From positions 172,215 to 236,214 of the forward strand of contig CAYFPM010000001.1 in assembly GCA_964345045.1 (NCBI GenBank): a stretch of DNA of 64,000 bases. Direction: 5' to 3'. Positions within the stretch are counted from its first letter, which is position 1; every line of letters starts with the position of its first letter. Positions 5,513-60,530 of this stretch are shown here, in pieces. Under the pieces are notes generated by a model, which made no database searches, was not told the origin of the DNA, and saw only the letters and a program-made list of their open reading frames with translations. This DNA comes from an uncultured Gammaproteobacteria bacterium. Its GTDB lineage: Bacteria > Patescibacteriota > Patescibacteriia > Magasanikbacterales > UBA922. The position numbers and the translations under genes are program-made.

Positions 5513-5600
5513 ACTTAACTTTTTATATTGACTTTTGTTTATTATTTTGTTAGCTTAACTTTGCGGTGGTAATACCACTAGAAGATAGGAGAATCGAAGA

Positions 5601-5915
5601 ATGGAACATTGTGTTGCACCGAGAGAGACCGCCTATACCTGCCAAGGGTACTCTGGTGAATGCTACAGGTACACAAAGGTGGAGGAACGCGATTGCGACA
5701 ACCCTAGTTTGGTCATGTCTTTGACGCGCGCCAACGGAGCGGCTTTGCATAAGCCAGGCAAGAAAGAGGGGGATGAGCGTCAATGGGTGTACAACATCCA
5801 GATGCCTGGGAGAGAAGAACCAGAGCTCATGACTGAGGATCAGATAAAGAAAGTCTTCAAGCAAGAGCAAGTTCGAATTGCTCTAGCGGCAGATAAGGCT
5901 GCGAAGGACAAGTAA
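5601..5915 (+). CDS. hypothetical small protein (moderately GC-enriched)
   Basis: AGGAG about 12 nt upstream. 104 aa, Cys-rich N-terminus and Lys-rich C-terminus. A hairpin terminator lies downstream at 6009-6026. The antisense ORF 5550..5870 is an alternative reading. Confidence 0.35.
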   Translation: MEHCVAPRETAYTCQGYSGECYRYTKVEERDCDNPSLVMSLTRANGAALHKPGKKEGDERQWVYNIQMPGREEPELMTEDQIKKVFKQEQVRIALAADKAAKDK

Positions 5916-6033
5916 GAGAGCCTCTCGCTGATAGCTTTGCCAGCTCTAAAACGTCTTAGGTTTACTCACCACCGCACCCATCAATCATTAACAATTCTTG
6001 AAAAAGAAACCCGTCTAGCGACGGGTATTTATA

Positions 6034-43060: not shown

Positions 43061-43134
43061 TAAATCAAGCTTAGTCTAACAAAAAAGTGGCCTTGTGGCC
43101 ACCTGATTGATTGCTATTATATATAGCGAAGAAT

Positions 43135-43318
43135 TTATAGCGTGTAGCCCGTAGGGGAATCTCACGTCGCTTGCTTCGCAGCTCCTGGGGAACTTTCCAG
43201 TTCCCCAGCCCTCCATCGCAAGTAAGGGGCTTTGCCCCTTACCATCCCCCGTTCGCTTCCCTTATATGAATCAGCAAAAAACAAAAAGACCAGCTTTCAG
43301 CTGATCTTTTTGTTTTTC
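43135..43318 (+). ncRNA. candidate small structured RNA or leader (GC-rich hairpins GGGGAACTTTCCAGTTCCCC and TAAGGGGCTTTGCCCCTTAC, ending in a terminator hairpin plus T-run at 43283-43316)
   Basis: No ORF. The TTGATT...TATATA promoter-like sequence upstream (43106-43126) and the three consecutive hairpins plus intrinsic terminator were read directly. Identity unknown. Confidence 0.2.
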
Positions 43319-43727
43319 GTAGACGACGGGGGAGACAGCTCGAACAAACTAATCGAAGAAGTCATGGCGTGGTCCAGAGTCGTGGACTCCAGCGACGAGC
43401 AAAACGAGGCAGTGTAGAAGGTGCCGCGCGGTCGGAGCCTGGAGAGTGGAGGGCCAGGAGGCCGAGAGCACGGGAGTTCGGACGACTCGCCCCAAGTCCG
43501 CGGAACATCGTCCCACAACATCTGTGGCAGAAGCTGGTGATCCCGAGCCAGTTCGTCGTGAAACCGGCCCTGCGGGATCGAATCTCGCCGTCACTACCCG
43601 CCGCCCCCAAGTCTTGTGAGACGATCCACGAAAACTCTGGAGCACTGGCGCCCCCGATACCGCGCTCAACCAAGAGCCGACCCTCCTATTGCAGGCCGCC
43701 GTCTGCATCCTGTAGAATAGATGGCCT

Positions 43728-45344
43728 ATGCCTCCGACTATCATAAGACTCTCGACCTACGCTCTGGAAGTCGATATCTCATCCAAAGACCTCGTCATTC
43801 TCGGTGCGAATGGCTCAGGAAAGTCGACGCTCGGGATAGAAGTCGCACAGAGCAGCCAGGCAATTCGGATCTCGGCACGTCGCACCCTGGATCTCGCCGA
43901 CTCAATCCCGATGAACTCGCTGCACGATGCAACCAAGAGCTATGAGCAAACTAGTGCGCAGAGCCTTCGCAACCGTATAAGTCAGCAGAATGACTTCGGT
44001 CAGGCTCTTGTGTTGCTACTGGCGCACGAGACCGAACATGGGAACAGCCTTCTCGCTAGAGTCAGAGCTGCGGAAGAGACGCGCTTGACGAGACAAGAGG
44101 GCTACACGAAACTCTCGCAGGCAGTGGAGGTGTGGGAGGCACTTTTCCCCGGTCGTCGCCTGACTTTCAACCGCCATCAGCCGAGGGTAACCCAGGATGG
44201 CTCGACGGGATTTCCCGCGCAGACATACGGGCAGACGCAAATGAGCGACGGCGAGAAGCAGGCGCTCTATCTAATAGCGAAGATACTCCTTGTGTCGAGC
44301 GGCAACATAATAGTAGTAGATGAGCCGGAAACGCACTTGCATTCAGCGCTCGCCCGGGAGCTCTGGGATCGCCTTCGAGCTCTACAGCCGGAACGAAAGT
44401 TCATCTACATAACGCATGACGTCCCTTTCGCGTTGAGCAGAGCGAACGCAAAGCTCCTCTTTCTGCACTCGAGGAATAGGGCGACTGTTGTCGATGATCT
44501 GGCTGACCTGCCTGCGAGCGCCATCGAGTCGCTTGTTGGCGCTGCCACGTCTTCCGTTAAGAATAGTAAAATCGTGTTGTGCGAGGGGACCTCCTCTTCG
44601 CTCGACTACTCGATCCTCAGCGCATGGTACTCCAGTGAGGACGTAAGCGTTGTTCCTGTAGGAAGTTGCGACACCGTTCAGGCCTGCATGTTGGCACTTC
44701 CAACCTCCCAAGTGCTGGCGGGGGCGTCTTTCCTCGGGGTGGTCGATCGAGACCAACGTAGCCAGCCGGAGCTCCAGCACATCAAGAGGCAGGGTATACA
44801 CATCCTTGGGGTCTCCGAGATTGAGCACCTCCTGGTGCTTCGCGGTGTGATACGACAGATCGCTTCGGTCCAAAAGTCAGAGTCTGCTGATGCCGCAGAC
44901 AGGGCGATTGACGCAGTGCGCGCCCGCATTCGGCAGCACCATGGTAGCCGGCTCCATATTGCCGCATTCGAGTACGCCAAGGAAGCAGCCCGGTGGCAGT
45001 TCACGTTCCCCAAGGGGAGGCTGTCACCGGGGAGCACGCTCGATGAAGCAAAGCAGAGCCTGCAAGGCGGCATGGGGAACCTCCCCAGTACCTCGCAGGT
45101 CGGCAATTTCGTTGACGACGCACACTCGCAGCTGAAGGCGGTTCTCGACCGGGGGGAGCTGGAGGAGATGCTGAAGCACCTCCAGCTCAAAGGGCTCCAT
45201 GGCTTGGCTGCTTCGCCCTTGGGGCTAACCGCCGATGGATACAAGAGTGTGTTCATCGGCGTCCTTCGCGGTATGCACGGCGATGGGGCGCGCAATTCAA
45301 TGCGCCAGGTCCTAGCGGATTTCCTGCCGCCGCTAGCTCCGTAA
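43728..45344 (+). CDS. ABC-type ATPase fused to a TOPRIM/DUF4435-like domain (OLD-family / Gabija GajA / PARIS AriAB-like ATP-dependent nuclease)
   Basis: Walker A GANGSGKST, signature MSDGEKQALYL, Walker B IIVVDEPETHLH, H-loop IYITHD. C-terminal IVLCEGTSSSLDYSIL (TOPRIM Glu), VVPVGSCDTV and GVVDRDQRS (DxD). A TAGAAT -10 lies immediately upstream (leaderless-like). Confidence 0.55.
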   Translation: MPPTIIRLSTYALEVDISSKDLVILGANGSGKSTLGIEVAQSSQAIRISARRTLDLADSIPMNSLHDATKSYEQTSAQSLRNRISQQNDFGQALVLLLAHETEHGNSLLARVRAAEETRLTRQEGYTKLSQAVEVWEALFPGRRLTFNRHQPRVTQDGSTGFPAQTYGQTQMSDGEKQALYLIAKILLVSSGNIIVVDEPETHLHSALARELWDRLRALQPERKFIYITHDVPFALSRANAKLLFLHSRNRATVVDDLADLPASAIESLVGAATSSVKNSKIVLCEGTSSSLDYSILSAWYSSEDVSVVPVGSCDTVQACMLALPTSQVLAGASFLGVVDRDQRSQPELQHIKRQGIHILGVSEIEHLLVLRGVIRQIASVQKSESADAADRAIDAVRARIRQHHGSRLHIAAFEYAKEAARWQFTFPKGRLSPGSTLDEAKQSLQGGMGNLPSTSQVGNFVDDAHSQLKAVLDRGELEEMLKHLQLKGLHGLAASPLGLTADGYKSVFIGVLRGMHGDGARNSMRQVLADFLPPLAP

Positions 45345-45622
45345 ACTCAAATGAATGCAGATTCCCTGGACTGATGGGATAGTACGAGACCGGCGCATGT
45401 GCGCCGGTCTTGTGGGTGGTGGAGATGGATGGAAGGCGTCGAACATGCACGGAGCGGGCCCTTCGGATGCGACGGGGTTTGTGACTCCAGGGTGTCTTGG
45501 GATACTTCGGCAAGCGAAGGAGTACAGATGTAGTGCGGGCTCGCCGTGGTCATGAGGCCTGTGGGAGCTGCAGCAGCGTTGCGCCTCCATGAGCGGACGG
45601 CCATTGTACGGGGTGCTCTTGG

Positions 45623-46192
45623 CTAGAGTCTACGCTCAAAGGTCAATGGTCCGATCAACATATTACCAGACTCCGTTGTATCCTCTGTTACGTAGTGTCC
45701 CTCTATCGGGCCTTCTGGCGTGATGTGGATAGCCCCGATTCCACGCCAGCTGGTCGTGTCGTCGCCGGCTGTCGTACCCTTATAGATCATGTAGGCCGTC
45801 CGACCTTGCTTAACACCGCTGCCCTCGATCTGAGACGTCACCGAGGGGCCGCCGTCCAGCGGTACTGCCGTCATCGAGGCCGCGATATCAACGCGCCCAT
45901 CCGAACACTCACCAATCTTCCCTCCAGAGAATCGATACCGAAACTTTGGTGTCATCCCCTGGATGGCGAGGTCTCCGGCCTCGCCAATCACGCTGATTTC
46001 ACGCCGGTCCTTGCAGAGCTTCTTCTCTCGGTCGTAGCCCTCGCAAAACTCTAACATGAAGCTGGGGCGACCGAGACTCGCAAAAACAACACTGGCCAGG
46101 AGACTCGTGCACACTCCGAGGAAGAAGGCCAAGGCCCTGCCTGGCGGCTTGCGATCATCATGTAGTTGCATCTGTCGCTCCAGATCCCGCAT
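45623..46192 (-). CDS. exported hypothetical protein (start taken at the internal MRDLERQ... Met before the signal-like helix)
   Basis: Hydrophobic LAFFLGVCTSLLASVVFA near the N-terminus. GC3-rich. The longer ORF 45623..46393 probably includes 5' non-coding sequence. Confidence 0.35.
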   Translation of the reverse strand: MRDLERQMQLHDDRKPPGRALAFFLGVCTSLLASVVFASLGRPSFMLEFCEGYDREKKLCKDRREISVIGEAGDLAIQGMTPKFRYRFSGGKIGECSDGRVDIAASMTAVPLDGGPSVTSQIEGSGVKQGRTAYMIYKGTTAGDDTTSWRGIGAIHITPEGPIEGHYVTEDTTESGNMLIGPLTFERRL

Positions 46193-46517
46193 AGTAGCGG
46201 AGGTCGGCGGAGTCAATAATGGGGCAAACGACCCAGTCGCGGTGCTTCGGTGCGTCGAAGTCCCAGAGGGGGGAGAGGTCGCTCGAGCTTGAGCCCGGCG
46301 TGCGCTCTGAGTTCGTAGGCTGGAACACAATTGCAGACGCGGCACGAGCGTGGAGCAGCGCACCTTGCGAATGTCTGCACTCTGATGGCCCATACTATTC
46401 CTGGCAGGCGGTAGCTCCGGTGAGGCCTACCAAGCCTCTTTGATGCTGGCGAGTTCCGATAGCAGCATAGATGGCTTGCGCTCGTTGGTGCTCTCAGTGA
46501 TGTACATGAGCATGCGT

Positions 46518-46866
46518 CGGGCTCGTGTAACCGCAACGGTTCCAAGAACTCCATCGGGTCGTCGTGGAGCAAGCCCTCTTGCCGCAGCCAGCGGCAGAAC
46601 GAGACCAGCCCCCAGTAGCGGTGGTTGAAGGCAGCTCTCGAATCGCCCGACGAGTCGGTCAAAAAGCGGCTCACCATGGCCGTTGATGGAGAGCTGAGCT
46701 CTGCGGCCTCGCCGATGGCCTCGAGCGATAGAAAGGACTCGAAGTCCGCCACCACCCGAGCGTAACGTCGGGTCACGGCCGGAGCGAGCTTCCTCCCTCC
46801 TCGCAGGTAGACCTCGAAGTTGGCCACCAGGTCCCTATCCATAGAGTGCAGATCTTTGGCAAGCAC
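46518..46866 (-). pseudogene. tyrosine recombinase N-terminal (SAM-like/core-binding) domain remnant; catalytic domain absent
   Basis: LAPAVTRRYARVVADFESFL...RAAFNHRYWGLVSFCRWLRQEGLLHDDP matches the integrase N-terminal domain. The downstream continuation (to 46213) shows no R-K-H-R-H-Y catalytic signatures. Confidence 0.4.
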
Positions 46867-47202
46867 GACGCCCGGAGCTTAGGCGCCCACTGAAGTCGTC
46901 GTCAATCCAATTATGCCCGATACACCCAGATTGGGCAGAACTACCTCGACTCACAGAGTCCCTACTGTAGGATGTGATCCCCGTTCTTTCGAAATCGAAG
47001 ACAAGCGACTTCTCGGCTCGGTTCTGCCTCGTTTCCGACCATGTGGTGCATCGGGTGCACGCAAGTGTACTTGCTGGAGCGCAGCTCTACCCGCGACGTC
47101 GGGAAAGCCAACCTGCTCGATGGGACAGGTTCGGAGGAAAGCTGGCTGTCGCCTCATTCGGGGGATTGTCACACCTGCGGAGCTTCGCGCACTACGACAG
47201 TC

Positions 47203-47595
47203 GTGGAAAAGGGAAGAACTACCATCGCCCTTCTCGACGATGATGCCGCCCTGCGTCGCCCGCTCGCGAAGTTCCTGCGGAGAGAGGGCTACCGTTGCTT
47301 GGAGTTCAGCTCGGCCGAGGAGTTCCTTGAGGCGAAGCCTCTCGTCTCACTTGTCGTCTCGGACGTGGAGATGGGGGCGATGTCTGGCCTCGAGTTGCGC
47401 AAGCGGTTGGCGGGTGCCACAACGGTTGTCCTTATGTCTGGCTCGGGAGAAGTCGAAGTTGACTTGCCGAAGCCGTTCCCGATCTCGAAGCTCACGACCG
47501 TAGTGGAGGCTGCCTTGCAGAGCGCAGCCATGCGCCCGGTTGATCGCGGAGCCAGTCCGGAGCCGAGTTTGCTCTCGATCATGGCCGGTGGTTGA
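47203..47595 (+). CDS. single-domain response regulator (CheY-like receiver); the annotated ORF begins at 47041 but the receiver starts near a GTG at 47203
   Basis: IALLDDDAALRRPLAKFL...LVVSDVEMGAMSGLEL...VVLMSG are receiver-domain acidic-pocket and phospho-Asp motifs. No output domain. Confidence 0.45.
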   Translation: MEKGRTTIALLDDDAALRRPLAKFLRREGYRCLEFSSAEEFLEAKPLVSLVVSDVEMGAMSGLELRKRLAGATTVVLMSGSGEVEVDLPKPFPISKLTTVVEAALQSAAMRPVDRGASPEPSLLSIMAGG

Positions 47596-47710
47596 CCTGA
47601 CGAAGCGGCCCAGTGTTGGGCAGCGGAACTCCACCCCCGCGGAGTGGTAGTTGCGGGTCTTCAGTGCGTATCGGCGCGAGAGGTTCGCTGGTATGCAGGA
47701 GGTCCGTGAC

Positions 47711-48379
47711 CTACTTCGCGATACCAGTGCCCAAGATCTTCTCAATGGCCGCGCTTTCTAACGCTTTCAGTTCATTGATGTGCGATTCAATCGTCGGCTT
47801 GCGTGGGTGCACGACTCTCAGTCTCTCGAGTTGGACGCCAGCCACCTCGATGGTATAGCGGCGAAGAGTGCCGTTACTATAGTAGTCCGCGTCGACTGCT
47901 GTGATGACCCCAGCGATTTCCAGCCTCACTCGGACCTTTGGGACTGAGATGAGTAGCTTGCTGCACTTCTTCTGCTGTTCTATGAGTCTCTCGATCTGTT
48001 TGCTGAGTTTCTTCAGCGAGGGATGGTCTGAAGTGATCTTCCAGTAGCCCTCTGAGGCGTCGAAGCTGATTGGAGCTCCTCTGAGGTGTAAGACAGGTAT
48101 GTCGCTGTCGATGTTGATTCGCCTTCGACCTATGAGGCGGGCGCAGATGAATGTTTCGCGGGTTGCGGGGTCATACCTCCCGAGAGCTTTGAGGAACTGC
48201 TCGATCGTAGAGTGGGTTTCGTCGTGCTCCGCCGCAAAGAGCTTGCAGACTTGGCTGTCGTTTTCATTTCTGCAGACTTGGAGCCTCCGTGTTCTGCATT
48301 TCTCACGACTGTCTGCACCAGCAGCTGGTCGTGGCGTTAGAGCAACTCCAAGTAGCAGCGCTAGTACTGCCGGCCGCAC
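47711..48379 (-). CDS. exported hypothetical protein (signal peptide)
   Basis: N-terminal MRPAVLALLLGVALTPRPAAGA. GC3-rich. Confidence 0.4.
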   Translation of the reverse strand: MRPAVLALLLGVALTPRPAAGADSREKCRTRRLQVCRNENDSQVCKLFAAEHDETHSTIEQFLKALGRYDPATRETFICARLIGRRRINIDSDIPVLHLRGAPISFDASEGYWKITSDHPSLKKLSKQIERLIEQQKKCSKLLISVPKVRVRLEIAGVITAVDADYYSNGTLRRYTIEVAGVQLERLRVVHPRKPTIESHINELKALESAAIEKILGTGIAK

Positions 48380-49020
48380 TACAGAGGGCTCCCGAATAGG
48401 GTTTCGAACGCCTGGTTGGACCTGGGGGATCGCTCCAGAAGTAGCAGAGTGTTGTTTCTTGGCGTGTCAGGCCTAACTACTAGAATCGGCTCGTTGTCCT
48501 CACTCCAGACAGTCAAGGTTCGATCGTATTGCAGCCGAGCCCACCCCCGGAACGCAGTATCTACAAATACGAGCCTGCCGTCGTTCTTGAGTAGTAGATG
48601 TCCCCCGATGGGGAGGGTGATCCTGTCATTCTGTAGTAGTGAATGGAACTTGATACGAAAGACACGTCCAGGAATGACAGCATCCGGCTTGACTTCGACT
48701 CGAAGTGACGATGCTGAAATTTCTAGGCCGCGTGCCGTTCGAATGGTCTGGCCGGATGTTCCGCGGAAGGAGAATCGATTTCCGGTCCCGCGCGAACTGC
48801 GGTCAGGACGACTGCGACGTGTGAAGTAGCCAACGACCGCGTATCCCGTGGTGGCAACGTCGTACGCGGTCATAGCAATGCGGATTGGTGCGGCAAGTTT
48901 GACTGCAAAGCGTGCTGTCCGAAATAGCCAGGAGTCTTTCGCGTGTACTTGCCTGGAGACTGCGAGAACTGGTGATGCAGCGAGGGCAAGTAGTAGCAAA
49001 CGTCGGTTTATGAGGTCCAT
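48379..49020 (-). CDS. exported hypothetical protein (signal peptide), co-transcribed with the 47711..48379 gene
   Basis: N-terminal MDLINRRLLLLALAASPVLAVS. The stop overlaps the downstream start. Confidence 0.4.
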   Translation of the reverse strand: MDLINRRLLLLALAASPVLAVSRQVHAKDSWLFRTARFAVKLAAPIRIAMTAYDVATTGYAVVGYFTRRSRPDRSSRGTGNRFSFRGTSGQTIRTARGLEISASSLRVEVKPDAVIPGRVFRIKFHSLLQNDRITLPIGGHLLLKNDGRLVFVDTAFRGWARLQYDRTLTVWSEDNEPILVVRPDTPRNNTLLLLERSPRSNQAFETLFGSPL

Positions 49021-49201
49021 ATGTCTGCCGTGAGTGGGCGATCTACAGGGTTATCGCCTGGAAATTGAGAATAGCACAGCTGAGTGGCGGTCGGGATGTG
49101 GTAGCCGCGACCACCCAACGGAATCAGGATTGGCCTTAGCGAAGCGAACAGCTCTCGGAACACGAAGAAGGGAGCCACCTGGATAGGGGCTCCCTTGGAG
49201 A

Positions 49202-49867
49202 TCACTCGAGCGTGAACGGCTGTCCGCAGCTGTCGCAGCGGATGGTCGTATCTGTGAGCGTCTTTCGGCTCACCCGAATGATGTAGGGGCAGGCACAAGT
49301 CGCCTTGCGGCTGCGGGTCTTGGATTGTCCTTCGGTTGGTGACGATGGGTCCGTGGTCGGATCCGGTGACGTGGTTGGTCGGAACGACCGTCGGTGTATG
49401 AGCACCGAGTCGAGTCGAGCGATCTCCTTGGCGTAGCGGTCAGCGGTCTCGTATGGCATCCGCGTCAGGGCGAAGCCGTAGTGCTGGACCTGATTGACCA
49501 CGAGGCCGAGTTCCTCGGCCGCCGCCTTGAAGAGGCGGTTGTGGTACTGGTTCCGGCTGCAATCCCGCTTGCCAAGAGCGAAGTTCATGGCATGAGCGGC
49601 CTCGTGAACGAGGGTCTCGACCACGTCTTCGGCCCCGCGGTTCAGGTGCTCGGCCACGACCACCACTTCGTGCAGTAGCTGGTCGTCGGTTCGGCGCACC
49701 TGCCAGCGCAGGGGGGCGAAATGCCCCAGGATGCGGCTTCCGCCCGGGCCCCTGGGCGCCGGGGCGGGCAAGAGCACTACGTTCGGTACCCGAGGGTGCC
49801 GGGCTTGGATGGCGCGCCAGACGGCCTGGAGAGCCGTGATGAGCTCGACGCTCGAGGTCTCATCCAT
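49202..49867 (-). CDS. SprT-like zinc metallopeptidase with a C-terminal zinc ribbon
   Basis: HEAAH (HExxH) in the context ETLVHEAAHAMNF. C-terminal CACP...CDSCGQ. Confidence 0.4.
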   Translation of the reverse strand: MDETSSVELITALQAVWRAIQARHPRVPNVVLLPAPAPRGPGGSRILGHFAPLRWQVRRTDDQLLHEVVVVAEHLNRGAEDVVETLVHEAAHAMNFALGKRDCSRNQYHNRLFKAAAEELGLVVNQVQHYGFALTRMPYETADRYAKEIARLDSVLIHRRSFRPTTSPDPTTDPSSPTEGQSKTRSRKATCACPYIIRVSRKTLTDTTIRCDSCGQPFTLE

Positions 49868-50135
49868 GGCAGTCTCCGACCGGTTCGGCCGCGACCAGGA
49901 GCCCCGGCTGAGGGAGGTGGGCGTACTTGACCTGGTTCCGACGCAGTTGCCGGAAGCAGCGGTGCATGTGCTGGTTGATCATGTGCTCGTAGGCGCCGGC
50001 CACGATGTGCAGCCGGCCGACCTCTGAGGTCTCGAGCAGTCCAGTACGCTCGAGAGCGTTCATGATCCGAGCCCGGTCGACGACCGTGCCCGGGGCAAAC
50101 GGGTAGAGTTCCACCACGATCGTGATGTTCAGCAT
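49860..50135 (-). CDS. hypothetical protein
   Basis: 91-aa GC3-rich ORF between the primase and SprT-like genes on the same strand. Confidence 0.3.
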   Translation of the reverse strand: MLNITIVVELYPFAPGTVVDRARIMNALERTGLLETSEVGRLHIVAGAYEHMINQHMHRCFRQLRRNQVKYAHLPQPGLLVAAEPVGDCHG

Positions 50136-50182
50136 GTTGTCTCCTTGTGCTTGGGGTCGACCGTGCAGCCGACCAATGACAG

Positions 50183-51277
50183 TCAGGTTGCAGATTCGTC
50201 CTCGGACAAAGGGAAGGCGAAGTTGACCTCGGCGAGGTCAAGCTGACGCAGGCCGTTCACCAGCCAGCGCACGAGGCGCGGCGGCAGGTCGTCCGGCTCG
50301 ATATCCCTCGGGAGCCGAGCCAGTCGGGTCGTGACGCCGAGAGCGGTGAGCTTCTCGGCCGCGACTGCGGCGCCTCGTTCGCCGGCTTCGTTGCCGTCGA
50401 ACATGATGACGACGTCCCTGGCCTCGGTGAGAAGCACGGCCTGGGCGTCCGACAATTCGGCGCCCATGGCGGCAACGACGTTCTCGAGGCCGGCCTCAAG
50501 GAGCTTCAGCACAGTGAAGAAGCCCTCCACCAGGACGACGCCCTCTGTCGCCGCCGCCTCGCGGCAGCGGTGCCAGTTGTAGAGCACCAGTTCCTTGCGG
50601 AAGCCTTTGGGCAGCTTGTACTTACCGAACTGAGCCGCGTCCGAGGGACGCAGGCGGCGGCCAGCATAGGCCACGAGGCCCCCCGCCTCGTCGTGGATGG
50701 GAAAGGCTACGCAGCCGCGCATCATGCCGCGAGAGCAGTAGCCCACGCCGAAGTGGTCGAGGGTCTCTGGGCGGAGCCCGCGGTCTTCGATGAGGTGCGG
50801 GTGCTCGCGCTTCAGGTTCAGCTTGACCGAGATGACCGGGTTCTTGGCGGGCGGCTCGTCGGCTTCCTCTTCGTCCGAGGTCTCAGCCTCGTCCGGCGAG
50901 GGAGCCGGCCGCTCGGTCTGGCGTGGCCTGGCTGCGGGCCTCTGGGCTCGGCTCTTCGAGGTCGGTTTCGGAGTCGGCGTGTCCACGAAGTAGTCGCGCA
51001 AGCGCAAGGCCGCTTCCCGTATGCCGACGCCCTCCTTCCGGGCGACGAAGTCGAGCTGGTTACCCCCGCCTTGGCACTTGGAGAAGCAGTGCCAAACGTC
51101 CTTGCCGAGGTCGGCGTGGAAGGCGCGGGGGTTGTCACCACCGTGCACCGGGCAGGGGCCAACCACCTTGTGATCGTGCCGCTTGAGCCCCTCGAGCTGG
51201 TAGAACTCGAAGAGCACCATCTCGAGGGAGACCCGGTCGCGGATCTCTTTGAAGTTGATCCAGTCCTTCTTGGACAT
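50183..51277 (-). CDS. DNA primase-like protein (CHC2 zinc finger + TOPRIM)
   Basis: CPVHGGDNPRAFHADLGKDVWHCFSKCQGGGNQLDFV (zf-CHC2). C-terminal VVLVEGFFTV...VIMFDGNEAGERGA (TOPRIM Glu and DxD-like motif). Confidence 0.6.
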   Translation of the reverse strand: MSKKDWINFKEIRDRVSLEMVLFEFYQLEGLKRHDHKVVGPCPVHGGDNPRAFHADLGKDVWHCFSKCQGGGNQLDFVARKEGVGIREAALRLRDYFVDTPTPKPTSKSRAQRPAARPRQTERPAPSPDEAETSDEEEADEPPAKNPVISVKLNLKREHPHLIEDRGLRPETLDHFGVGYCSRGMMRGCVAFPIHDEAGGLVAYAGRRLRPSDAAQFGKYKLPKGFRKELVLYNWHRCREAAATEGVVLVEGFFTVLKLLEAGLENVVAAMGAELSDAQAVLLTEARDVVIMFDGNEAGERGAAVAAEKLTALGVTTRLARLPRDIEPDDLPPRLVRWLVNGLRQLDLAEVNFAFPLSEDESAT

Positions 51278-51497
51278 AGGTTGTCTCCATGGTCACCGAG
51301 AGGTAACGCAGGTTAGGTTGCCTACCGGAGTCCCGGCAGGGGGCGGCAAAGCCGTCCCCCCTGAGCACCGACACGGTCACTGGCCTGACCAAGGTCGATG
51401 CGCCGCGCCGGGGAACAGCCCGAGGCAGCTCGCAAAGAGCTGTGGACGCCCTTCGTGATCAGGGGGGATGGCCCGATCAAGTGATCGGGTTGGGGGT

Positions 51498-52847
51498 CTA
51501 AACACCGAGCTCGGGGAACAGCTCGTCTCGCCGTCGGGCGAAGCGCTCTCGCGATAGCCGGCGGATCAGGTCAGCGCGCTCGCGGCCACCAGGTGGAGGC
51601 GTTCGGGGCGGCAGCATGCGGGCCGTGAGGGGCGCGAGCTCTTGTCCCTCGGCCAGGAGGCGAACTGCGGCGTGGTGCGCCGGCAGGTCACGCAGGTGGC
51701 TGGCGGTGAGCGTCGGCTCGAAGCCCGGTCCGAGGTACTGAGCATCCTCAGCGCCGAGGCGGAAGACCAGGGACGAGCCGACGTTGCCGACGACCGCGTC
51801 CCGGATTTGGTCAGGCAGTTGGCCGAAGTACTGGTGGGCGAGAACCAGTCCGAGACCGAACTTGCGAGACTCGGACAGCATGGTGGCGATGGAGCCCGAG
51901 ACGAAGCGCTGGAACTCGTCGATGTAGACGAAGAACGGCGGCTGGGCTCGTCCTCGTGACCAGGCCGCCAGTTGGATTGACGACAACAAGAGCGCGCCGA
52001 GCAAGCGACTGGCGTCTTCGCCAATACCTCCCGTAGAGAGGTTGGCGAGGACAATGGCCTGGCGATCGATGAGGTCGGCGAAGTCCACCCGGGAGCGCAC
52101 CTGGCCGACGATGCTGCGGACGATGGGGTTCCCCACGAAGGTGCCGAGCTTGTTCAGGACGGGCGCCACAGCCTCAGCCTGGAGGCTCTTGCCGTAGCCC
52201 GGGAACTCCTCCTGCCAGAAGGCGAGGACAGCCGGGTCGGTGACACGCTCAAGGGTCTTCTCCCGCAGAGCTTCGTCGGTCAGGAAGCGGTAGAGGTAGA
52301 CCAGGCTCGCATCGGGCCCTTCGGCCACGGCCAGGATGGCCTGGCGGAGGACATGCTCGAGCCGCGGTCCCCAGCTGTCGCTCCAAAGGGAGCGGAAGGC
52401 GGACAACAACTCCGAAGCCAGCAGCGTTCGCGAGGGATGCGGACGCCGCCCGGCCCGGAAGACGTTGAAGGAAACCGGCCAGGCCTCGTCTTCGGGGGCG
52501 AACAGCAGGACATCTCCGAGTCGGTGCGAGGGCACCAGCCGGAGAACGGTCTCAACCAACTCGCCGTGCGGGTCGAGGAGCGCCAGTCCGCGGCCGGCCG
52601 CGAGATCCTGGGAAATGAGGTTAGCAAGCAAGGTTGACTTGCCTGACCCCGTCTTCCCGATAACGTGCAGGTGCCGCAGTCGGTCAGCCGGGTGTAGGCC
52701 GAAGCGTTCCCGCCGTCGGCGAAAGGCGGTCTGGCCGAGGACGTAGAGCGGTTGGCTCGCTTCGTCGAAGCTGGCCGAGGGCGGAGTGACCCGCGGCAGA
52801 TCCGGCACCTCGGGCACCGGGGACAGGCCGGGAATGGGAGCGAGCAC
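51498..52847 (-). CDS. HerA/FtsK-superfamily (DUF87-like) P-loop ATPase, putative DNA translocase of the element
   Basis: IGKTGSGKSTLL...LLDPHGEL, Walker B VYIDEFQRF, ESRKFGLGLVLAHQ (arginine-finger region conserved in HerA/FtsK-like ATPases). Confidence 0.55.
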   Translation of the reverse strand: MLAPIPGLSPVPEVPDLPRVTPPSASFDEASQPLYVLGQTAFRRRRERFGLHPADRLRHLHVIGKTGSGKSTLLANLISQDLAAGRGLALLDPHGELVETVLRLVPSHRLGDVLLFAPEDEAWPVSFNVFRAGRRPHPSRTLLASELLSAFRSLWSDSWGPRLEHVLRQAILAVAEGPDASLVYLYRFLTDEALREKTLERVTDPAVLAFWQEEFPGYGKSLQAEAVAPVLNKLGTFVGNPIVRSIVGQVRSRVDFADLIDRQAIVLANLSTGGIGEDASRLLGALLLSSIQLAAWSRGRAQPPFFVYIDEFQRFVSGSIATMLSESRKFGLGLVLAHQYFGQLPDQIRDAVVGNVGSSLVFRLGAEDAQYLGPGFEPTLTASHLRDLPAHHAAVRLLAEGQELAPLTARMLPPRTPPPGGRERADLIRRLSRERFARRRDELFPELGV

Positions 52848-52858
52848 AGGCAGTGGGG

Positions 52859-53473
52859 TTAGCTCTCCCGAGCTTGGTCAGGGGAGATGATTGAATGGAC
52901 CTCGCCTTGGCCGTCGACCCACCTCGGGTCGAGGATCATGTCCGGGGCGAGGATGGAGATCTCGAAGCCGTCCTCGTTCTTGTCCGCGTAGTGGCCGAAC
53001 CAGAAGAGGCCTCGGCCGTGGGGCAGTGCCTCTGCCAGGCCTCGGTAGCGTTCAGCTCGGCTCGGGGTGGTGGTGGCAAAGATGACTGCCCGCAGGCGCT
53101 CATGGCCGTAGGCCTCCTTGAAGAAGCCCTGAACGAAGCGGGCGAGCTGGGGCAGCCGGTCGAGTAGCTCAGACACGAGTTCGTGCGTGGTGGCCTCCCG
53201 ACGTCCGGTGAGCCGAGCCTTGGCAGCTTCGAGCTCGAGCGAATCGGTAGAGCCCCCGCAGCGGCCAAGGGCGCCGGTGACGAGCACGGTCTCGACGCCG
53301 TAGCCCGTAGCCAGCTTGCGCACGAGGCGGATGGCCTCGTCCTCTCCTCCCTGCGCCAGGCTGCCGATCCAAGCTCGTTCGAGGAGCCAGAGATCCGAGC
53401 CGTCGAGGATGGCCAGATTGAGCGCCGGGTAGCGGTAGACCGCGACCAGGAGCCGCCGTTCCCTACAGGGCAT
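52859..53473 (-). CDS. hypothetical protein (start taken at the internal MPCRERR Met)
   Basis: GC3-rich ORF. The upstream part of the longer ORF overlaps the XRE gene. Confidence 0.35.
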   Translation of the reverse strand: MPCRERRLLVAVYRYPALNLAILDGSDLWLLERAWIGSLAQGGEDEAIRLVRKLATGYGVETVLVTGALGRCGGSTDSLELEAAKARLTGRREATTHELVSELLDRLPQLARFVQGFFKEAYGHERLRAVIFATTTPSRAERYRGLAEALPHGRGLFWFGHYADKNEDGFEISILAPDMILDPRWVDGQGEVHSIISPDQARES

Positions 53474-53804
53474 GGCTCCCGCCGGTGGCGTCCTCTTGGT
53501 CATCCGGGGCCAGCCCCAGCTCGAGTCGCCGAGCTTCGACATCGGCTCGGCGCTCGTCGAGGTAGTCGGGCGAGAAGAGGTTCTCGATCGGGACCTCAAG
53601 AGCGAGAGCTAACGAGGTCAGGATCTCAATGGGACGGGGAACGTCCCGGCAGGTCTCGTACTCGTAGAGCTGGCGGACAGACAGTCCGGCCAGCTCAGCC
53701 AGGTCTTTCTGGGGGAGCCCATGCTCTCCGTACCACTGCCGTAGCCTACGGATGTGGAGTTGGAGCGGGCGAGAATCCTCGTCTCCTCCTTGGTTTGTGT
53801 TCAT
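53463..53804 (-). CDS. XRE-family helix-turn-helix transcriptional regulator
   Basis: QKDLAELAGLSVRQLYEYE is a classic Cro/C1-type HTH. First gene of the minus-strand operon, divergent from the recombinase. Confidence 0.6.
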   Translation of the reverse strand: MNTNQGGDEDSRPLQLHIRRLRQWYGEHGLPQKDLAELAGLSVRQLYEYETCRDVPRPIEILTSLALALEVPIENLFSPDYLDERRADVEARRLELGLAPDDQEDATGGSHAL

Positions 53805-54078
53805 AGTTATCCACAGCAGACCAGTCGACAGAAGTCGTCTCGTTTGCTATGGTGCGTTGTCACCTCCTTCTTTGTGAGTTATGCAGCTTGCCGCCCTCCT
53901 GGCGCTCATAGCTACACGTTGGAGGTGGCCAGCTGACAACAAACTCGGTCACTCGGCCAATCTCCCACGTGTTCGACATGCCTTTCATGATACCGCATGA
54001 CGGAACGAGCGGGAGAGCAGGAACCGGAGGGATTCCGCCGGTTCTGTGGATAGGTCGCGACTTGAGATGAACACAACA

Positions 54079-54105
54079 AAACTCCGCCCATGTAGGCGGA
54101 GTTTT
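54079..54105. terminator. Bidirectional hairpin (AAAACTCCGCC-CATGTA-GGCGGAGTTTT)
   Basis: Perfect 11-bp stem flanked by A- and T-runs. Confidence 0.5.
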
Positions 54106-54345
54106 GTTGTTGTATGCCTCCGGTTTCTGCTGTTCGCAGCTAGACCTCTGGCAGGTACGATAGTTCTCTATGAAACGAGGACATGTGCCTGACAACTTGC
54201 CTGTGGCCGAAGAGGACATCCGTCCCATCGAACGCCACGAGCATCCAATTCAAAATCGCGAGCAGACCGTGAAAGCTCTGGCTCGCGTCCTGCTGGATAC
54301 GCTCATCGAGCACTATGCCAGTGGTGGTAACGATGAAGATATTCT

Positions 54346-55995
54346 ATGACTACACATTACAACGTGGGTTCCGCCGGGCCACGGCATGGTGTCGGCTACC
54401 CGCGCGTCTCTGGGGCAGCCCAGGTTCACGGTACGTCGCTCGACATGCAGGAGCGAGAGATCGCTAGCTACTTCGAGCGAAACGGCATCGTGGTTGACCG
54501 GATGTTTCGCGAAGAGGGGCAGTCCGCCAAGACGAGAGACCGTAGAGCGATGCTCGACGCTCTCGACTACTGCCGGCGAAACCAGAACCGGATCACGGAC
54601 TTCGCGGTCTACAAGGTCGACCGCTTCGCTCGACAGGTTGAGGACCACTTCTACCTTCGCGGCGAACTCGCAAAGTACGGCATCAAACTCCACTCGGTGG
54701 CGGAGCCAATCTCCGATTCGCCGATAGGGAAGTTCACGGAGACCACCTTGGCGGCCTTCGCCGAGTTCGACAACGCGGTGCGAGCTGTCCGCTGCGTCAA
54801 CGGCATGAAGGAGCGCCTTGCTCAGGGGATATACCCCTTCAAACCACCAGTCGGCTACATCTGCGCTCGGCACCGAGCGAGCGGAGAAAAGAAGCGAACA
54901 CCAGATCTCCCAGATCCGAAGCTGTTCCCGATGATCCAGCGGGGGCTCAGGCTCTTCCTCACTGGAGCCTGTCGCGAGTCCGAGCTGGCCGAGAAGCTCA
55001 ACGTTTGGGGCTTCGGGGCAGAGCGGGGGAGGCCTGCTACGGTGAACCTCGTGGACAAGATGCTCGGCCAGTATCTCCTTTTCTACGCTGGAGTATTGGT
55101 GAACCCTTGGACAGGCGAGGAGATTCCTGGCCAGCACGAGCCGATGATTACCCGGCAGGATGCCGATGTGATCCGAGCGATACGAAGCGGCGTGGTTCAA
55201 CGCCCCAAGAAAGAACGTTTCAGCAGCGAGTTCCCGCTCCGTGGACTCGTGCGATGCGAGTCGTGTCGTGGCCTGCTCACTGCGAGCTACTCACGCGGGA
55301 AGCGGGGGACCCGCTATCCCTACTACCACTGTCAACGATCAGGATGCTCCAGTCGGACTCGACGAGATGACCTGCACGAGAGCTTCACCGGGCTTCTTGC
55401 ATGCCTCACCCCCGACCCGGCCTTCCTCGAAGAGCTCTTCGCCGAGGCAGATGCTCAATGGGCGCACGAAAAAGCCGCCCTTGAGGGGCGACGAGATCAC
55501 CTTCGTCGACGTATTGCCGAGCTGGAGCACCGACGCGAACGGGTCTTCGAACTCTACGAGGGCGGGGCGTACGACAAAGCAGTGTTCCAGGAGCGCAAGC
55601 AGACACTCGAGTCCGAGATCGCCGTTCTGCGGCTTCAGTCCCGGCCGACCGAGGAAGATGTGGCCGAGAAGATGGACATCTCAACGACCGCCGGGAAAGT
55701 TATCGAACTCGTCAGGAACCTCCCGAATGCCTGGAGGAAACTCCCAGTTCAGCGCTTCCGAGAGATCGCCAGACTGGCCTTTCCGGAACCTGTGCTCTAC
55801 TCCCGAAATCGGGGTTATCGAACACCTGTTCTGTCGCTAATTTATGCGGAAATACAAGGCGCTGAGCGCCGCAGTTCTCCAGTGGTAGACCACAGCACTG
55901 ACCATTGGAACCTTTTCATTGAAGAAATAAGGCAATGGAGCCTTTTGATTCCTTCTGTATTCAGAGAATGTGATCTTTCTTGTGAGCAATTATAG
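54346..55995 (+). CDS. large serine recombinase (resolvase-domain integrase)
   Basis: N-terminal resolvase catalytic domain (YPRVSGAAQ...SLDMQ), recombinase domain, CESCRGLL...YYHCQRSGC zinc ribbon, coiled-coil. The last ~35 codons are AT-rich and probably flanking DNA. Confidence 0.8.
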   Translation: MTTHYNVGSAGPRHGVGYPRVSGAAQVHGTSLDMQEREIASYFERNGIVVDRMFREEGQSAKTRDRRAMLDALDYCRRNQNRITDFAVYKVDRFARQVEDHFYLRGELAKYGIKLHSVAEPISDSPIGKFTETTLAAFAEFDNAVRAVRCVNGMKERLAQGIYPFKPPVGYICARHRASGEKKRTPDLPDPKLFPMIQRGLRLFLTGACRESELAEKLNVWGFGAERGRPATVNLVDKMLGQYLLFYAGVLVNPWTGEEIPGQHEPMITRQDADVIRAIRSGVVQRPKKERFSSEFPLRGLVRCESCRGLLTASYSRGKRGTRYPYYHCQRSGCSSRTRRDDLHESFTGLLACLTPDPAFLEELFAEADAQWAHEKAALEGRRDHLRRRIAELEHRRERVFELYEGGAYDKAVFQERKQTLESEIAVLRLQSRPTEEDVAEKMDISTTAGKVIELVRNLPNAWRKLPVQRFREIARLAFPEPVLYSRNRGYRTPVLSLIYAEIQGAERRSSPVVDHSTDHWNLFIEEIRQWSLLIPSVFRECDLSCEQL

Positions 55996-56097: not shown

Positions 56098-59000
56098 TTA
56101 TACTTGTTGTCGGTTCTCAAACCGTACAAAGTAAAAATCTTCTCCGTCCATGTACTTAGGTTTTTTCTCGTTTTTTGTAAGATAAAATCCTCGTGATTCA
56201 AACCAACTTCTTACACTGTCATTCATAAGCATGGCGTATGATGTACTTGCACGGGCTTCCGCTTCTATTGCAACATTGTACGCAGTAGCTACATCAAGAA
56301 CTCTTTCCATCATTTGACGAGCTAAGCCCTTGCCCTGGAATTCTGGGAGAATAGCCATGTCATGAACATGGGCACATTTTTCTCCTGGTTGCACCTCTGA
56401 GTCTTCAGGAAGCATGAGTAGATAGCCTACTGCTTCATTACCTTGTCTAATCACAAAGCTTGAGGCCGCTCCAGGTACATCCAATTCTCTTTGTTTTTGA
56501 ATAATATCGAGAATGTGAGCCTTTCCTTGTGTCATACCCTCTGGGTAGATTTTTGCTTCCAATTCTGCAATAAGTTGTGCATCTCTTTCGGTCAAGTTAG
56601 CAAATGTAACAATTTCATCAAGAGATTCTACACCTCTCATTTTCGGTAGATCATAAATTTGTGCACCGTTTGCGTCAGAATATGAGAGTGGTGTCTTTGA
56701 ACGATAGTTATTTCCTTCAAGTTTTCCGCCTGGAGGAATCAAGTCGGAATAACCAGTACCAACTTTTACTGCTTTACTCGTATACTCTGTCCAAAATACT
56801 TGATATGCACGTGCTAGCTGTGGTGATAATTTCTTATAGTTATTTGCGACTTCGATGTTATCGAGTATAACAACATCTTTACCATCACGCGAATCTACAC
56901 CATCTACCACTACTGATTGAGCTACTATTCGTCCATTATACTTAACCGTAAAATACTGTGTAGACCTATTAAACATGTAATCGTCATTATTTGACGCACC
57001 AAATGGCATACAGCAATCTGTATAGTTACCACAAACCCAACCTTCTGGGTCAGATTTTGCGTGTACTTGTGCCTCAATAATAGGTCCTACATCAACATTT
57101 TGATCACGTAAAAGTTTAATAATTTCTTCCTCAAGTTCAACAGGGATATTATCAAGTAAATCTGTAACTTGCATTTTTCGCCCTTCTTTCCCTACTGTTT
57201 TTCCTTTAACAAGCTGATTTAGTTCGTGGAATAGCTTACGAACAGATTGTGCCGTACCTTCAATTTTCAATTTACGAGAGCCTAGCCCCTCACGTAATGA
57301 TTGTGTCAGATCAAGACCAGCAAATACACGAGTGTGGGGTTTAAATGGTTGTTCTTTATCCATTTTACCTTCGACAAGATCTTGAAAGTCTGCACGTCGT
57401 CGCAAGCTCTCCAATGCAGCGAGATTAAACCCTGGTGCGGTAGTAATTTCGAAAATTTCAGGGGGCAATTCAGAAAGGTCAATGTTAGACTCAATAGCAA
57501 GGATACGCTTCTTTAATTCTCTGATGGATTGCACTGGACCATGTTCAGTCAAAGGATCACGTTCTTTACTATATCGAGGTAAGAGAGCAATAAATTCTTG
57601 GTTATCATCCATTGTTTGGATCCCCGTGAGAATAGATTTTGCTTCCCCAGCTTCCAGCTTTCGAATATTTGGTACCCAAAATAGGACATCATGCCAGTTT
57701 GCAAGCCTGCCTTCTGTATCACGAGTTGCGTTAAAGCGTAGTAGATAGTCTTGCACTGTTGCACCACCAACATACTCAGCCGCTTCTTTATACCAACTAC
57801 GTATTTCTTCCGTTTGAGAGCCAAGACAAATTCTAAAGTCAAGTTCGCTTTTTTGTTGTGGATCTTGTTCAAATACACTAGACCAATTTTTACCTTCAGG
57901 AGTCGCTCGCCATTCAGCATATTTCGCAAGTCCATTAGGATCAAGTTGTACATAGTCGTTTGCATAATCGTAGTACAACTCGATTTCTCCTTGTGTAACT
58001 GATTCTCTCCATTCTTCTGGCCAATCAGCAAGTGCGAATTCTAAATCATTTTCCACTTCACCCTTTATTAAGCCTTCAAGATAGCGTTCTTTATCATGAG
58101 CCAGGGCTACACCACGTAAATCTTGCCCTCTTTCCAGTGCTTGAATAATCAATCCAAGAGTGGCTCCTTTTCCTTTTTTAGCTTCACCTACTTGTGCTCC
58201 ATAACGATCTTGTTCAGCTCCTTGTCCTAACAACACAATAATGAGATTTTTGTGTTTATCAAGATATTCACTTAATTTTTCATCGGGTACATCTGCCTTA
58301 GATAAATCGTAACGGCTCCAGTCAACATACGAATCTTGATGATAAAAACGATCATCTTGACTGTGGTGTGGACTTTTAATAAATACCTGTTGAGCCAGCC
58401 AATACATTCGCTTACCTTCTCGGAATAAATTCCTCGCTTTTCTTTTACTTTCTGAGGCAAGCCAATCTTGCTCACTCATGCGTACTTCTTCTGAATCAGC
58501 CCCTTGTGACCGTTCATGAAGATATCGCCATATATTTGCTCGATTCAATTTATGTGCTTCATGCAATTGTTTTTTTACTCTTGTAGGTTCCCAATCTTGC
58601 AAGTTGTATCCAAGAGCCTGCAAGTATCCAAAACCAGCCATTTGCTCTGAAACATTTCTGTCATCAGCGTCTAGTATTTCAGAGGCACGTTCCGCTCCAA
58701 CATGGCGGATAAAATCATATACCTGATGATCATTGTAAAAATAAGGTGACTGTTCTCCACGACCACATCTATAACGAGCAAATGCTTCAGAAACAACAGG
58801 ATCTGCCTCCGCTGCTTTTTGTGCAAGAACATCACGAACTCCTCCTTTTGCTTGTGATACAAGAGAGTCTATTTCAAAATTACCCCACACAATGGTTGGC
58901 TTTTTGAACAAATCAGAATGAACAAAACGGAGAGTTGTTCCACTCTTTTCTTCGTCAGTGGGTTCACTTAGTAATTTCTCTATCCGTCTATGTCCAGAAC

Positions 59001-60150: not shown

Positions 60151-60320
60151 ACCCTTGGTCGGATTTATAAATATGCCTTATTTTGCTGGCGTGGAAATGC
60201 TTGTAAACACAAAGCTCCCCGCCAGCGATGACCCCGAAGGATCACCCATACCCCTTTCGGGGTACGACCGACCAAGGTATCTGAGCGGAGAGCTTAATAC
60301 CTTGGTCGGGTTTGTGTGCC
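60151..60320 (+). ncRNA. candidate structured cis-regulatory RNA: three copies of CCTTGGTCGG (direct/inverted/direct) enclosing two internal hairpins
   Basis: P1 CCTTGGTCGG(60153)-CCGACCAAGG(60268). Inside lie GCTGGCG...CGCCAGC and CCCCGAAGG...CCTTTCGGGG hairpins. A third CCTTGGTCGG (60300) can alternatively pair with CCGACCAAGG, which is an antiterminator/terminator-like topology. About 60% GC in an AT-rich spacer. Confidence 0.25.
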
Positions 60321-60530
60321 ATACCCTAAAAGATAAATCCTCTAGGGGTTAGGCTTGAATTGTCGAAATAATATCAAATCATCAAAAAAATTTACAAATG
60401 TGAATTTGATATGTAGCGATCATACTATATTTTTTGTTTTATATCAAGAGAATAATATACGCACTTCTTTTTTATCCACATTCGGACAATTTTGCTATTC
60501 GGTATATTTTCGGGTATACTAAATTTACCT

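Follow-up and report, generated by a model that had tools for sequence, protein, structure and literature searches.

A probable single-polypeptide PARIS (fused AriAB) defence protein on a high-GC integrative element in a candidate phyla radiation genome

An open reading frame (ORF) on the + strand at 43728-45344 of the window, by which is meant the whole 64,000-nucleotide stretch of contig CAYFPM010000001.1 analysed here, probably encodes an intact and functional single-polypeptide defence protein of the PARIS type, carried by a serine-recombinase integrative element. The gene, ariAB, is a divergent but otherwise ordinary member of an already catalogued family of one-chain anti-phage enzymes that couple an ATP-driven sensor with a nuclease, and its product joins an ABC ATPase to a DUF4435/TOPRIM half in one chain. 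A sequence-only reading of this DNA had guessed at a protein of the OLD, GajA or PARIS kind, a guess that can now be narrowed to fused AriAB (PADLOC E=1.6e-66, with AAA_21 and DUF4435 both above their cut-offs), and had taken the gene for a possible minimal single-gene variant, which in any novel sense it is not, 'merged' ariAB clades having been published already (PMC9122126, PMC11464382). It is best annotated as a fused PARIS AriAB defence protein instead of the 'ABC transporter ATP-binding protein' or 'DUF4435 protein' labels that relatives carry in public records. The value of the find is modest: with at most 39% identity to any known protein, it is a very divergent representative of a fused clade on which no experimental study was found. 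Recognisable defence genes on mobile elements in genomes of the candidate phyla radiation (CPR) are few, and this is one of them; more unusual than the gene itself is its carrier, a high-GC conjugative-type island in a low-GC CPR genome.

The protein and its conserved motifs

The ORF begins with ATG and runs for 538 amino acids (aa) and a stop, as given by the ORF list and by direct reading of the DNA. Its features are set out below, conservation being judged from an alignment of 40 relatives, which share 23-38% identity with the window protein.

43728 to 45344, + strand: whole fused ariAB gene (ORF list, PADLOC AriAB match, AlphaFold2 model)
43728 to 44513, + strand: ABC ATPase N-terminal half, aa 1-262, AAA_21 type (Pfam, Foldseek and family-profile matches)
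43803 to 43829, + strand: Walker A / P-loop GANGSGKST, aa 26-34 (translation and conservation)
44241 to 44258, + strand: ABC signature motif MSDGEK, aa 172-177 (conservation)
44307 to 44342, + strand: Walker B with catalytic Glu and D-loop, IIVVDEPETHLH, aa 194-205 (conservation)
44409 to 44420, + strand: H-loop ITHD, aa 228-231 (conservation)
44532 to 45341, + strand: DUF4435 C-terminal half, aa 269-538, with a TOPRIM core at aa ~281-370 and then an all-helical domain at aa ~372-530
44568 to 44615, + strand: first acidic TOPRIM motif IVLCEGTSSSLDYSIL, aa 281-296, with E286, G287 and D293 (invariant in the alignment)
44736 to 44762, + strand: TOPRIM DxD motif GVVDRDQRS, aa 337-345, with D340 and D342 (invariant in the alignment)
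44814 to 44831, + strand: third acidic motif SEIEHL, aa 363-368, with E364 and E366 (invariant in the alignment)

The ORF position and all of the ATPase and TOPRIM/DUF4435 motifs quoted in the sequence-only reading stand, VVDEPETHLH being found in the translation at aa 196-205 and VVPVGSCDTV at aa 308-317, and the quoted motifs are invariant or nearly so among the relatives. Invariant columns comprise M172, S173, G175, E176, D198, E199, P200, H205, T229 and H230 in the ATPase half and E286, G287, D293, D340, D342, E364, E366 and K488 in the C-terminal half, while the Walker A residues G26, N28, G29, S30, G31 and K32, together with D174, E201, H203 and D231, are conserved at 90% or more. Because the functional motif positions are invariant columns across 40 distant relatives, the motif matches are no matter of chance, and the N-terminal half is a complete ABC ATPase head. 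The full-length AlphaFold2 model has a pLDDT of 91.2 and a pTM of 0.83, and in its ATPase half there is a short helical insert only (helices 65-81, 84-114 and 122-139).

At 43878-43883 (aa 51-52) a conserved 'A-Q-R' position after the first beta-strands holds Gln in most family members; it is Arg in the window protein and its nearest relative P0002 (SARR / GARR) and Leu or Met in the next closest relatives. If this position is the Q-loop, then the canonical Q-loop glutamine would seem to have been lost in the subclade of the window protein.

Assignment to the fused AriAB family

The match that carries the assignment is to the PADLOC AriAB profile PDLC02982 (570 positions), reached with 223 bits by aa 18-521 over profile positions 42-552, the second fused-AriAB profile of that collection, PDLC02981 (694 positions), being matched at 2.5e-16 only. 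Proteins of the PDLC02982 type are presumably those named PARIS_II_merge by DefenseFinder. Other PADLOC defence profiles, namely GajA, PtuA, AbiLi, mad3 and HEC-01A (E 1e-6 to 1e-15) and also ATPase-Toprim_I-B, reach the ATPase motif region only. With Pfam both halves score above their cut-offs, AAA_21 at 1.7e-12 (48.5 bits, cut-off 27), ABC_tran at 26.7 bits (cut-off 25) and DUF4435 (PF14491) over aa 284-410 at 2.5e-6 (27.9 bits, cut-off 27). The C-terminal half, whose failure to match such profiles the sequence-only reading had held would count against it, does then match DUF4435, and the two scores lie above both thresholds of the PARIS detection rule of Rousset et al. 2022, which asks for at least 27 bits each from AAA_21 and DUF4435 (PMC9122126). 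Across the aligned relatives AAA_21 is matched in 40 of 40 and DUF4435 in 32, at best with 3e-20.

Structural comparison gives different neighbours to the two halves. Foldseek with the ATPase half of the model returns PtuA in the top ranks and then OLD, GajA and Rad50/SMC heads, and the family profile run against the PDB likewise reaches Ec83 PtuA (4e-10), OLD 6p74 (6.7e-6) and AriA 8ux9_B (1.3e-4). The C-terminal half shows the AriB fold with the TOPRIM acidic cluster; in the structure comparison of this half OLD structures lie lower than AriB, and next after the top come PH0156 (7.3), OLD C-terminal regions (7.0 and 6.9) and GajA (6.3). As modelled, the likeness of this half to AriB extends past the TOPRIM core. 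Foldseek with the same half places OLD and AriB chains again among its top five, weakly (E 0.02-0.09).

One rival reading is a class-1 OLD-like DNA nuclease, a single chain that nicks or degrades phage or host DNA in an ATP-modulated manner, as proposed for P2 Old and Thermus OLD, and does not act on tRNA. Such an enzyme is an unlikely reading, the domain and fold evidence favouring AriB over OLD, and Toprim_Old (PF20469) gives no Pfam match at E<=1 in the window protein. Other candidates were tried and rejected. Gabija was set aside with GajA profiles confined to the ATPase motif region and no helicase among the island ORFs, Pfam and PADLOC scans of which bear out the sequence-only reading in that no GajB-like helicase or other recognisable defence partner is found there; Septu was set aside with no HNH partner present. 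A housekeeping ATPase of the RecF/SbcC/SMC kind fits neither the SMC_N score (23.9 bits, below the 40-bit cut-off) nor the variable contexts of the family, which are mostly mobile elements and restriction-modification (R-M) genes.

A number of points weigh against a fused AriAB assignment, or against carrying over what is known of two-gene PARIS from E. coli B185. The DUF4435 score clears its cut-off by little. The Foldseek match to AriB is weak (E about 0.06, TM about 0.3), and AriB is not reached by sequence in the PDB, be it with the single protein, the full family profile or a C-terminal-only profile. B185 AriA is reached at E about 1e-4 to 6e-3 only, and by way of the stretch from signature to Walker B and H-loop; in the HMMER alignment query residues 10-37 fall on AriA 17-44 and residues 161-235 on AriA 354-429. 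The spacer between Walker A and signature is 124 aa in the window protein and 310 aa in AriA, 186 fewer, and it is this spacer that in AriA holds the pore residues R116/R119 for Ocr binding and the F230/F234/F238/Y304 face of the trimer of dimers (PMC11464382). Since the AriA insertion segment is missing, the hexamer and sensing model of B185 is not transferable, the window protein having neither the AriA insertions that serve the AriA6:AriB3 complex nor a nuclease that is released. The island ORFs, when scanned, show no R-M system for AriAB to guard, and a literature search found no experimental test of any fused AriAB. Weighed together with the profile evidence, these points leave the window protein very probably a PARIS fused AriAB of the AAA_21 plus DUF4435 ('merged') type.

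Family breadth and genomic settings

Single-gene ariA-ariB fusions have been described before (PMC9122126), and fused ariAB has been resolved into two 'merged' PARIS clades with a single origin from a two-gene clade (PMC11464382). Of the 122 relatives returned by the indexed search most have 527-544 aa, and the homologous ORFs in 79 reference-genome loci have a median of about 535 aa. The sequence-only reading had the protein shorter than fused AriAB, which does not hold, as 538 aa sits at the modal length of the clade (about 535-540 aa) and the matching PADLOC profile has 570 positions; in length and architecture the protein is ordinary within the fused AriAB family. An exhaustive HMMER scan of 1.84 billion cluster representatives (50% identity) gave at least 443 clusters with E<=1e-30 and, at the looser limit of E<=1e-10, 1601. 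Among about 15 billion proteins no relative comes closer than 34-39% identity, and by its sequence the window protein is a deep branch of the fused clade. Members occur in Pseudomonadota, Bacillota, Actinomycetota, Bacteroidota, Planctomycetota, Chlamydiota and CPR lineages, the nearest relatives being from Pseudomonadota, Planctomycetota, Chloroflexota, Actinomycetota and Gemmatimonadota.

For the settings of relatives, ORFs were called in the 79 loci and three neighbours per side were clustered all against all. No conserved partner gene emerged, 413 neighbours falling into 375 clusters of which the largest covers 4-5 of the 79 loci. With no conserved neighbour in these loci and no further PADLOC match on the island, ariAB has the character of a stand-alone 'loner'. 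What does recur is proximity to R-M genes and recombinases. A 538-aa homolog of the Ruthenibacterium type lies between the type III methylase Mod and the Res helicase in an element with a Tn916-like integrase and excisionase, and a 539-aa homolog lies between hsdM-hsdS and hsdR with a large serine recombinase beside it. In a Peregrinibacteria genome the homolog is likewise sandwiched by hsdS and hsdR (by BLAST to labelled genes), and in a Saccharibacteria genome a C5-methyltransferase-like gene, judged by motif, adjoins it. Type I or III R-M genes lie at most four genes away in at least 10 of the 79 loci and recombinases are nearby in at least 6, both counts being lower bounds obtained from single BLAST seeds. 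Sixty plasmids carry relatives, whose only labels are 'DUF4435 domain-containing protein' or 'AAA family ATPase', and in the temperate Oenococcus phage phi9805 a relative lies directly 3' of the lysin and holin genes, in an accessory locus.

With relatives spread over R-M operons, plasmids, integrative elements, a phage and many phyla, the fused AriAB family shows the pattern of a horizontally mobile defence gene and not that of a housekeeping RecF/SbcC-like protein; housekeeping homologs, which the sequence-only reading had named as counting against it, were not what was found. The position inside R-M operons fits an 'anti-anti-restriction' guard role, and recalls other abortive-infection genes embedded in type I loci. 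Mobility of this sort could also be read as that of a selfish addiction module resembling a toxin-antitoxin (TA) pair, in which the ATPase half restrains a toxic nuclease half for the benefit of the element, and phage defence is secondary or absent. AriA is called an 'antitoxin' by the PDB depositors of 8v45/8v46, the Pfam description of AAA_21 mentions the AbiEii type IV TA toxin, and the gene is placed at one edge of its mobile carrier, with relatives common on plasmids and integrative elements. However many relatives are embedded in R-M operons, a defence context, and two-gene PARIS is an anti-phage system by experiment. Further, toxin and antitoxin that are covalently fused are equally stable, and so the logic of a labile antitoxin cannot operate. 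A role mainly in addiction is very unlikely for a fused protein.

A relative on the Rhizobium binae plasmid p4 (positions 4944-6570 of locus L143) was considered as a two-gene sister and rejected. Its pieces of 207 and 274 aa, annotated 'ATP-binding protein' and 'DUF4435 domain-containing protein', lie 178 nt apart, and a fused ariAB that has been disrupted is more probable here than a true two-gene system. Immediately upstream of the closest AriAB relative (P0002) there is a short Phage_integrase fragment.

The carrier island and its host

The gene occupies the left margin of a high-GC island, the rest of the window having about 36-45% GC. The element and its principal genes are as follows.

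43340 to 55900, approximate edges, no strand: high-GC integrative element of ~12.6 kb (GC 54-72%, flanks ~39%)
50183 to 51277, − strand: DnaG-type primase (Pfam Zn_ribbon_DnaG, DNAG_N, Toprim_2/4)
51498 to 52847, − strand: type IV coupling-protein-like (TrwB/VirD4/FtsK-HerA) ATPase (Pfam TrwB_AAD_bind, DUF87)
54346 to 55995, + strand: large serine recombinase, right end of the element (Pfam Resolvase 4e-24, Zn_ribbon_recom 1.8e-5)

Plasmid matches of the coupling-protein-like ATPase are annotated as type IV secretion system (T4SS) DNA-binding domain proteins, and further island ORFs encode a SprT-like protein and a lone receiver domain. None of the other island ORFs has a PADLOC match, the 57-aa ORF upstream of ariAB (43446-43619) included. 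That the gene is cargo of an integrative element, as the sequence-only reading had it, is upheld by the GC contrast, the serine recombinase, the primase and the coupling-protein-like ATPase. At third codon positions the GC content (GC3) of ariAB and of the recombinase is 0.67, that of the core of primase, ATPase and SprT genes 0.80-0.86 and that of host genes 0.25-0.39, and since the island is thus compositionally mosaic (0.56-0.86), an accessory cargo status of ariAB on a serine-recombinase integrative element fits.

Just downstream of ariAB an ORF at 46213-46866 (− strand) has a sub-threshold Phage_int_SAM_1 match over the whole N-terminal domain (E=0.012, 16.4 bits) and no catalytic integrase domain; it may be a tyrosine integrase remnant, the mark of an older nested insertion. 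The two island edges share no direct or inverted repeat of 9 bp or longer, and with att-type repeats lacking, as a serine recombinase would lead one to expect, the edges can be placed only approximately. A search for the integration target found no tRNA gene in the 64-kb window and, at the left junction, no match to an Rfam family. The final ~45 codons of the serine recombinase (55860-55995) are in low-GC, host-like DNA, and the recombination crossover may lie inside the recombinase 3' end, in which case integration would change the recombinase C-terminus. Between tsaD and the island edge the DNA at 43105-43290 has ~50% GC and contains two perfect hairpins of 9-10 bp. On either strand it gives a better fold than shuffled sequence does (z -3.0 and -4.0), and terminator-like hairpins flank it; it matches no Rfam family, and could be a small RNA or a recombinase target region. 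An attempt to define an element family by way of the coupling-protein-like ATPase was not successful, as 0 of 50 metagenome loci with full-length matches (~27-44% identity) share the primase/SprT/AriAB set and a serine recombinase is nearby in only 5 of the 50.

The host flanks carry prs and tsaD, with dnaE further left. The close relatives of Prs that bear a name, at 62-70% identity, all come from Candidatus Magasanikbacteria or Parcubacteria, and by this protein the host is a Candidatus Magasanikbacteria-like CPR bacterium. The base composition of the island points to acquisition from a distant high-GC lineage, and set against the GC of the host suggests a recent cross-phylum acquisition of the serine-recombinase/primase/coupling-protein element; transfer of the defence gene into the CPR bacterium may have been from the bacterial host of the latter. 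An assembly artefact is unlikely because low-GC DNA lies on both sides of the island within one contig and because two other assemblies agree, an ENA assembly that repeats 21.6 kb across the island with 4 single-nucleotide polymorphisms (SNPs) and an independent Logan assembly that reproduces the prs-tsaD-ariAB left junction exactly. All assemblies covering the island derive from two runs of one project, ERR2281802 and ERR2281803. The four SNPs against the ENA assembly all fall in one 48-bp stretch (51815-51862) of the coupling-protein-like ATPase gene, and could be strain variation or a local assembly difference.

Elsewhere in the window the sole Rfam match is a LOOT RNA (RF03000) at 60227-60355 (− strand), with 78.1 bits against a gathering score of 46.4, which lies just upstream of a gene for a 1300-aa host protein (56098-60000, − strand) with a GNAT acetyltransferase domain at aa ~1135-1272 and no Pfam match in its first ~1100 residues. 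Other local GC peaks, of 44-51%, occur in the low-GC part at about 3-4, 19-20, 26-27 and 33-36 kb.

Expression signals

Upstream of ariAB one candidate promoter element can be read.

43713 to 43718, + strand: TAGAAT, a putative -10-like hexamer (sequence read)

The sequence-only reading had this hexamer abutting the start codon and took the arrangement as typical of high-GC actinobacteria. It lies 9 nt from the ATG at 43728, a consensus promoter scan found no promoter-like site on the + strand and no -35, and the actinobacterial attribution falls away with a CPR host and nearest protein relatives spread over five phyla. There is no Shine-Dalgarno-like motif 5' of the ariAB ATG; the three host genes examined are likewise without one, and GGAG does stand before several core genes of the island. 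For ariAB a transcript with no leader, or with a very short one, is possible on this reading of the upstream DNA.

Such features could be those of a silent or non-functional recent passenger in the CPR host, or indeed of an artefactual island, as might the GC3 of ariAB when set beside that of host genes and the single-project origin of the assemblies. Yet the ORF is intact over 538 codons and keeps all invariant family residues, low-GC host DNA bounds the island on both sides and the left junction comes from a second assembler as well; and because host genes are likewise without Shine-Dalgarno motifs, the missing motif is no defect in ariAB. A silent passenger or artefact is therefore judged very unlikely, and silence in the present host would not change the identity of the gene.

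Proposed mechanism

In B185 PARIS the AriA dimers bind ATP and hold the AriB N-terminal region, to which the catalytic E26 belongs, over the ATP sites; when AriA is bound by a phage protein such as Ocr, AriB is ejected; and the freed AriB dimerises as a two-metal ribonuclease that nicks tRNA-Lys(UUU) and certain other tRNAs in the anticodon stem, leading to translation arrest (PMC11464382, PMC12409363). The steps proposed for fused AriAB are drawn by analogy with this system, and on that footing a defence role by trigger-activated nuclease toxicity is likely, the chances that tRNA is the substrate being about evenly balanced.

Two ATPase heads would pair head-to-tail around ATP, and in the resting state the tethered TOPRIM active site would be kept inactive against the nucleotide-binding domain. 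The catalytic E286 comes only about 55 residues after the H-loop, a placement by which the fusion may hard-wire the interface that the AriB N-terminus makes over the AriA ATP sites. A phage-encoded trigger, plausibly an anti-restriction protein, would alter the ATPase state, whereupon two TOPRIM domains could form an active dimeric arrangement with two-metal catalysis and cleave host nucleic acid, most likely the tRNA anticodon stem-loop, so that translation would stop and the infection abort. Because the halves are covalently joined, activation would have to be a conformational or oligomeric switch and not nuclease release, and because the ATPase is without about 186 residues of AriA insertions, trigger recognition would be on another surface than that of AriA. 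Quite how a non-releasable nuclease is kept off and switched on, and what is sensed, is the mechanistic question posed by this insertion-poor fusion.

One answer, offered tentatively and thought rather unlikely, is that the protein is a non-release, cis-autoinhibited sentinel of an R-M complex or of its inhibition. A separate strand of this tentative reading is that a conjugative-type element of 55-72% GC in a Magasanikbacteria genome of ~39% GC may record a recent transfer between phyla. The sentinel part is suggested by the missing insertions, a TOPRIM domain that is not releasable and the repeated insertion of homologs inside type I/III R-M operons, and the sensing surface and oligomeric state may then be other than those of B185, possibly with another nucleic-acid target.

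Comparison with known systems

In Gabija, GajA works with the GajB helicase. Septu/retron PtuA, of AAA_21 type, provides the best profile and Foldseek matches of the ATPase half, but works with PtuB, an HNH nuclease on a second chain, and is itself without TOPRIM/DUF4435. Class 1 OLD proteins (P2 Old, and Thermus scotoductus OLD, PDB 6P74) are single chains of 512-586 aa with an ABC ATPase and a C-terminal TOPRIM domain and show significant fold and profile matches, differing by the Toprim_Old domain for which the window protein has no match.

The two-gene PARIS of E. coli B185 consists of AriA (464 aa) and AriB (~305 aa), with structures in PDB 8UX9 and 8V45-8V49. The ABC ATPase motifs align with those of AriA, and the acidic order E...D...DxD...ExE parallels AriB E26, D30, D88, E90 and E122. 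We infer that E286/D293 may correspond to AriB E26/D30, D340/D342 to D88/E90, and E364/E366 to E122, the mapping being put no more firmly because AriB was never reached by sequence; in AriB itself E26A abolishes defence (PMC11464382). In contrast to B185, the covalent fusion of the two halves makes release of the nuclease impossible, and the ATPase belongs to the AAA_21 type; AAA_15, which served for B185 AriA in the published tree of AriA proteins (PMC11464382), gives 31.4 bits against a cut-off of 32.1. Two-gene PARIS of AAA_21 type is active in Lactococcus.

Fused ('merged') AriAB is the closest counterpart. The window protein stands apart within it as a deep branch with a marginal DUF4435 score, found in a CPR genome and on an island without an R-M system. 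It conforms in being one polypeptide of about 535-540 aa in which an ABC ATPase is followed by DUF4435/TOPRIM, matched end to end by the family profile, and encoded by a solitary gene whose relatives lie on mobile elements and in R-M loci.

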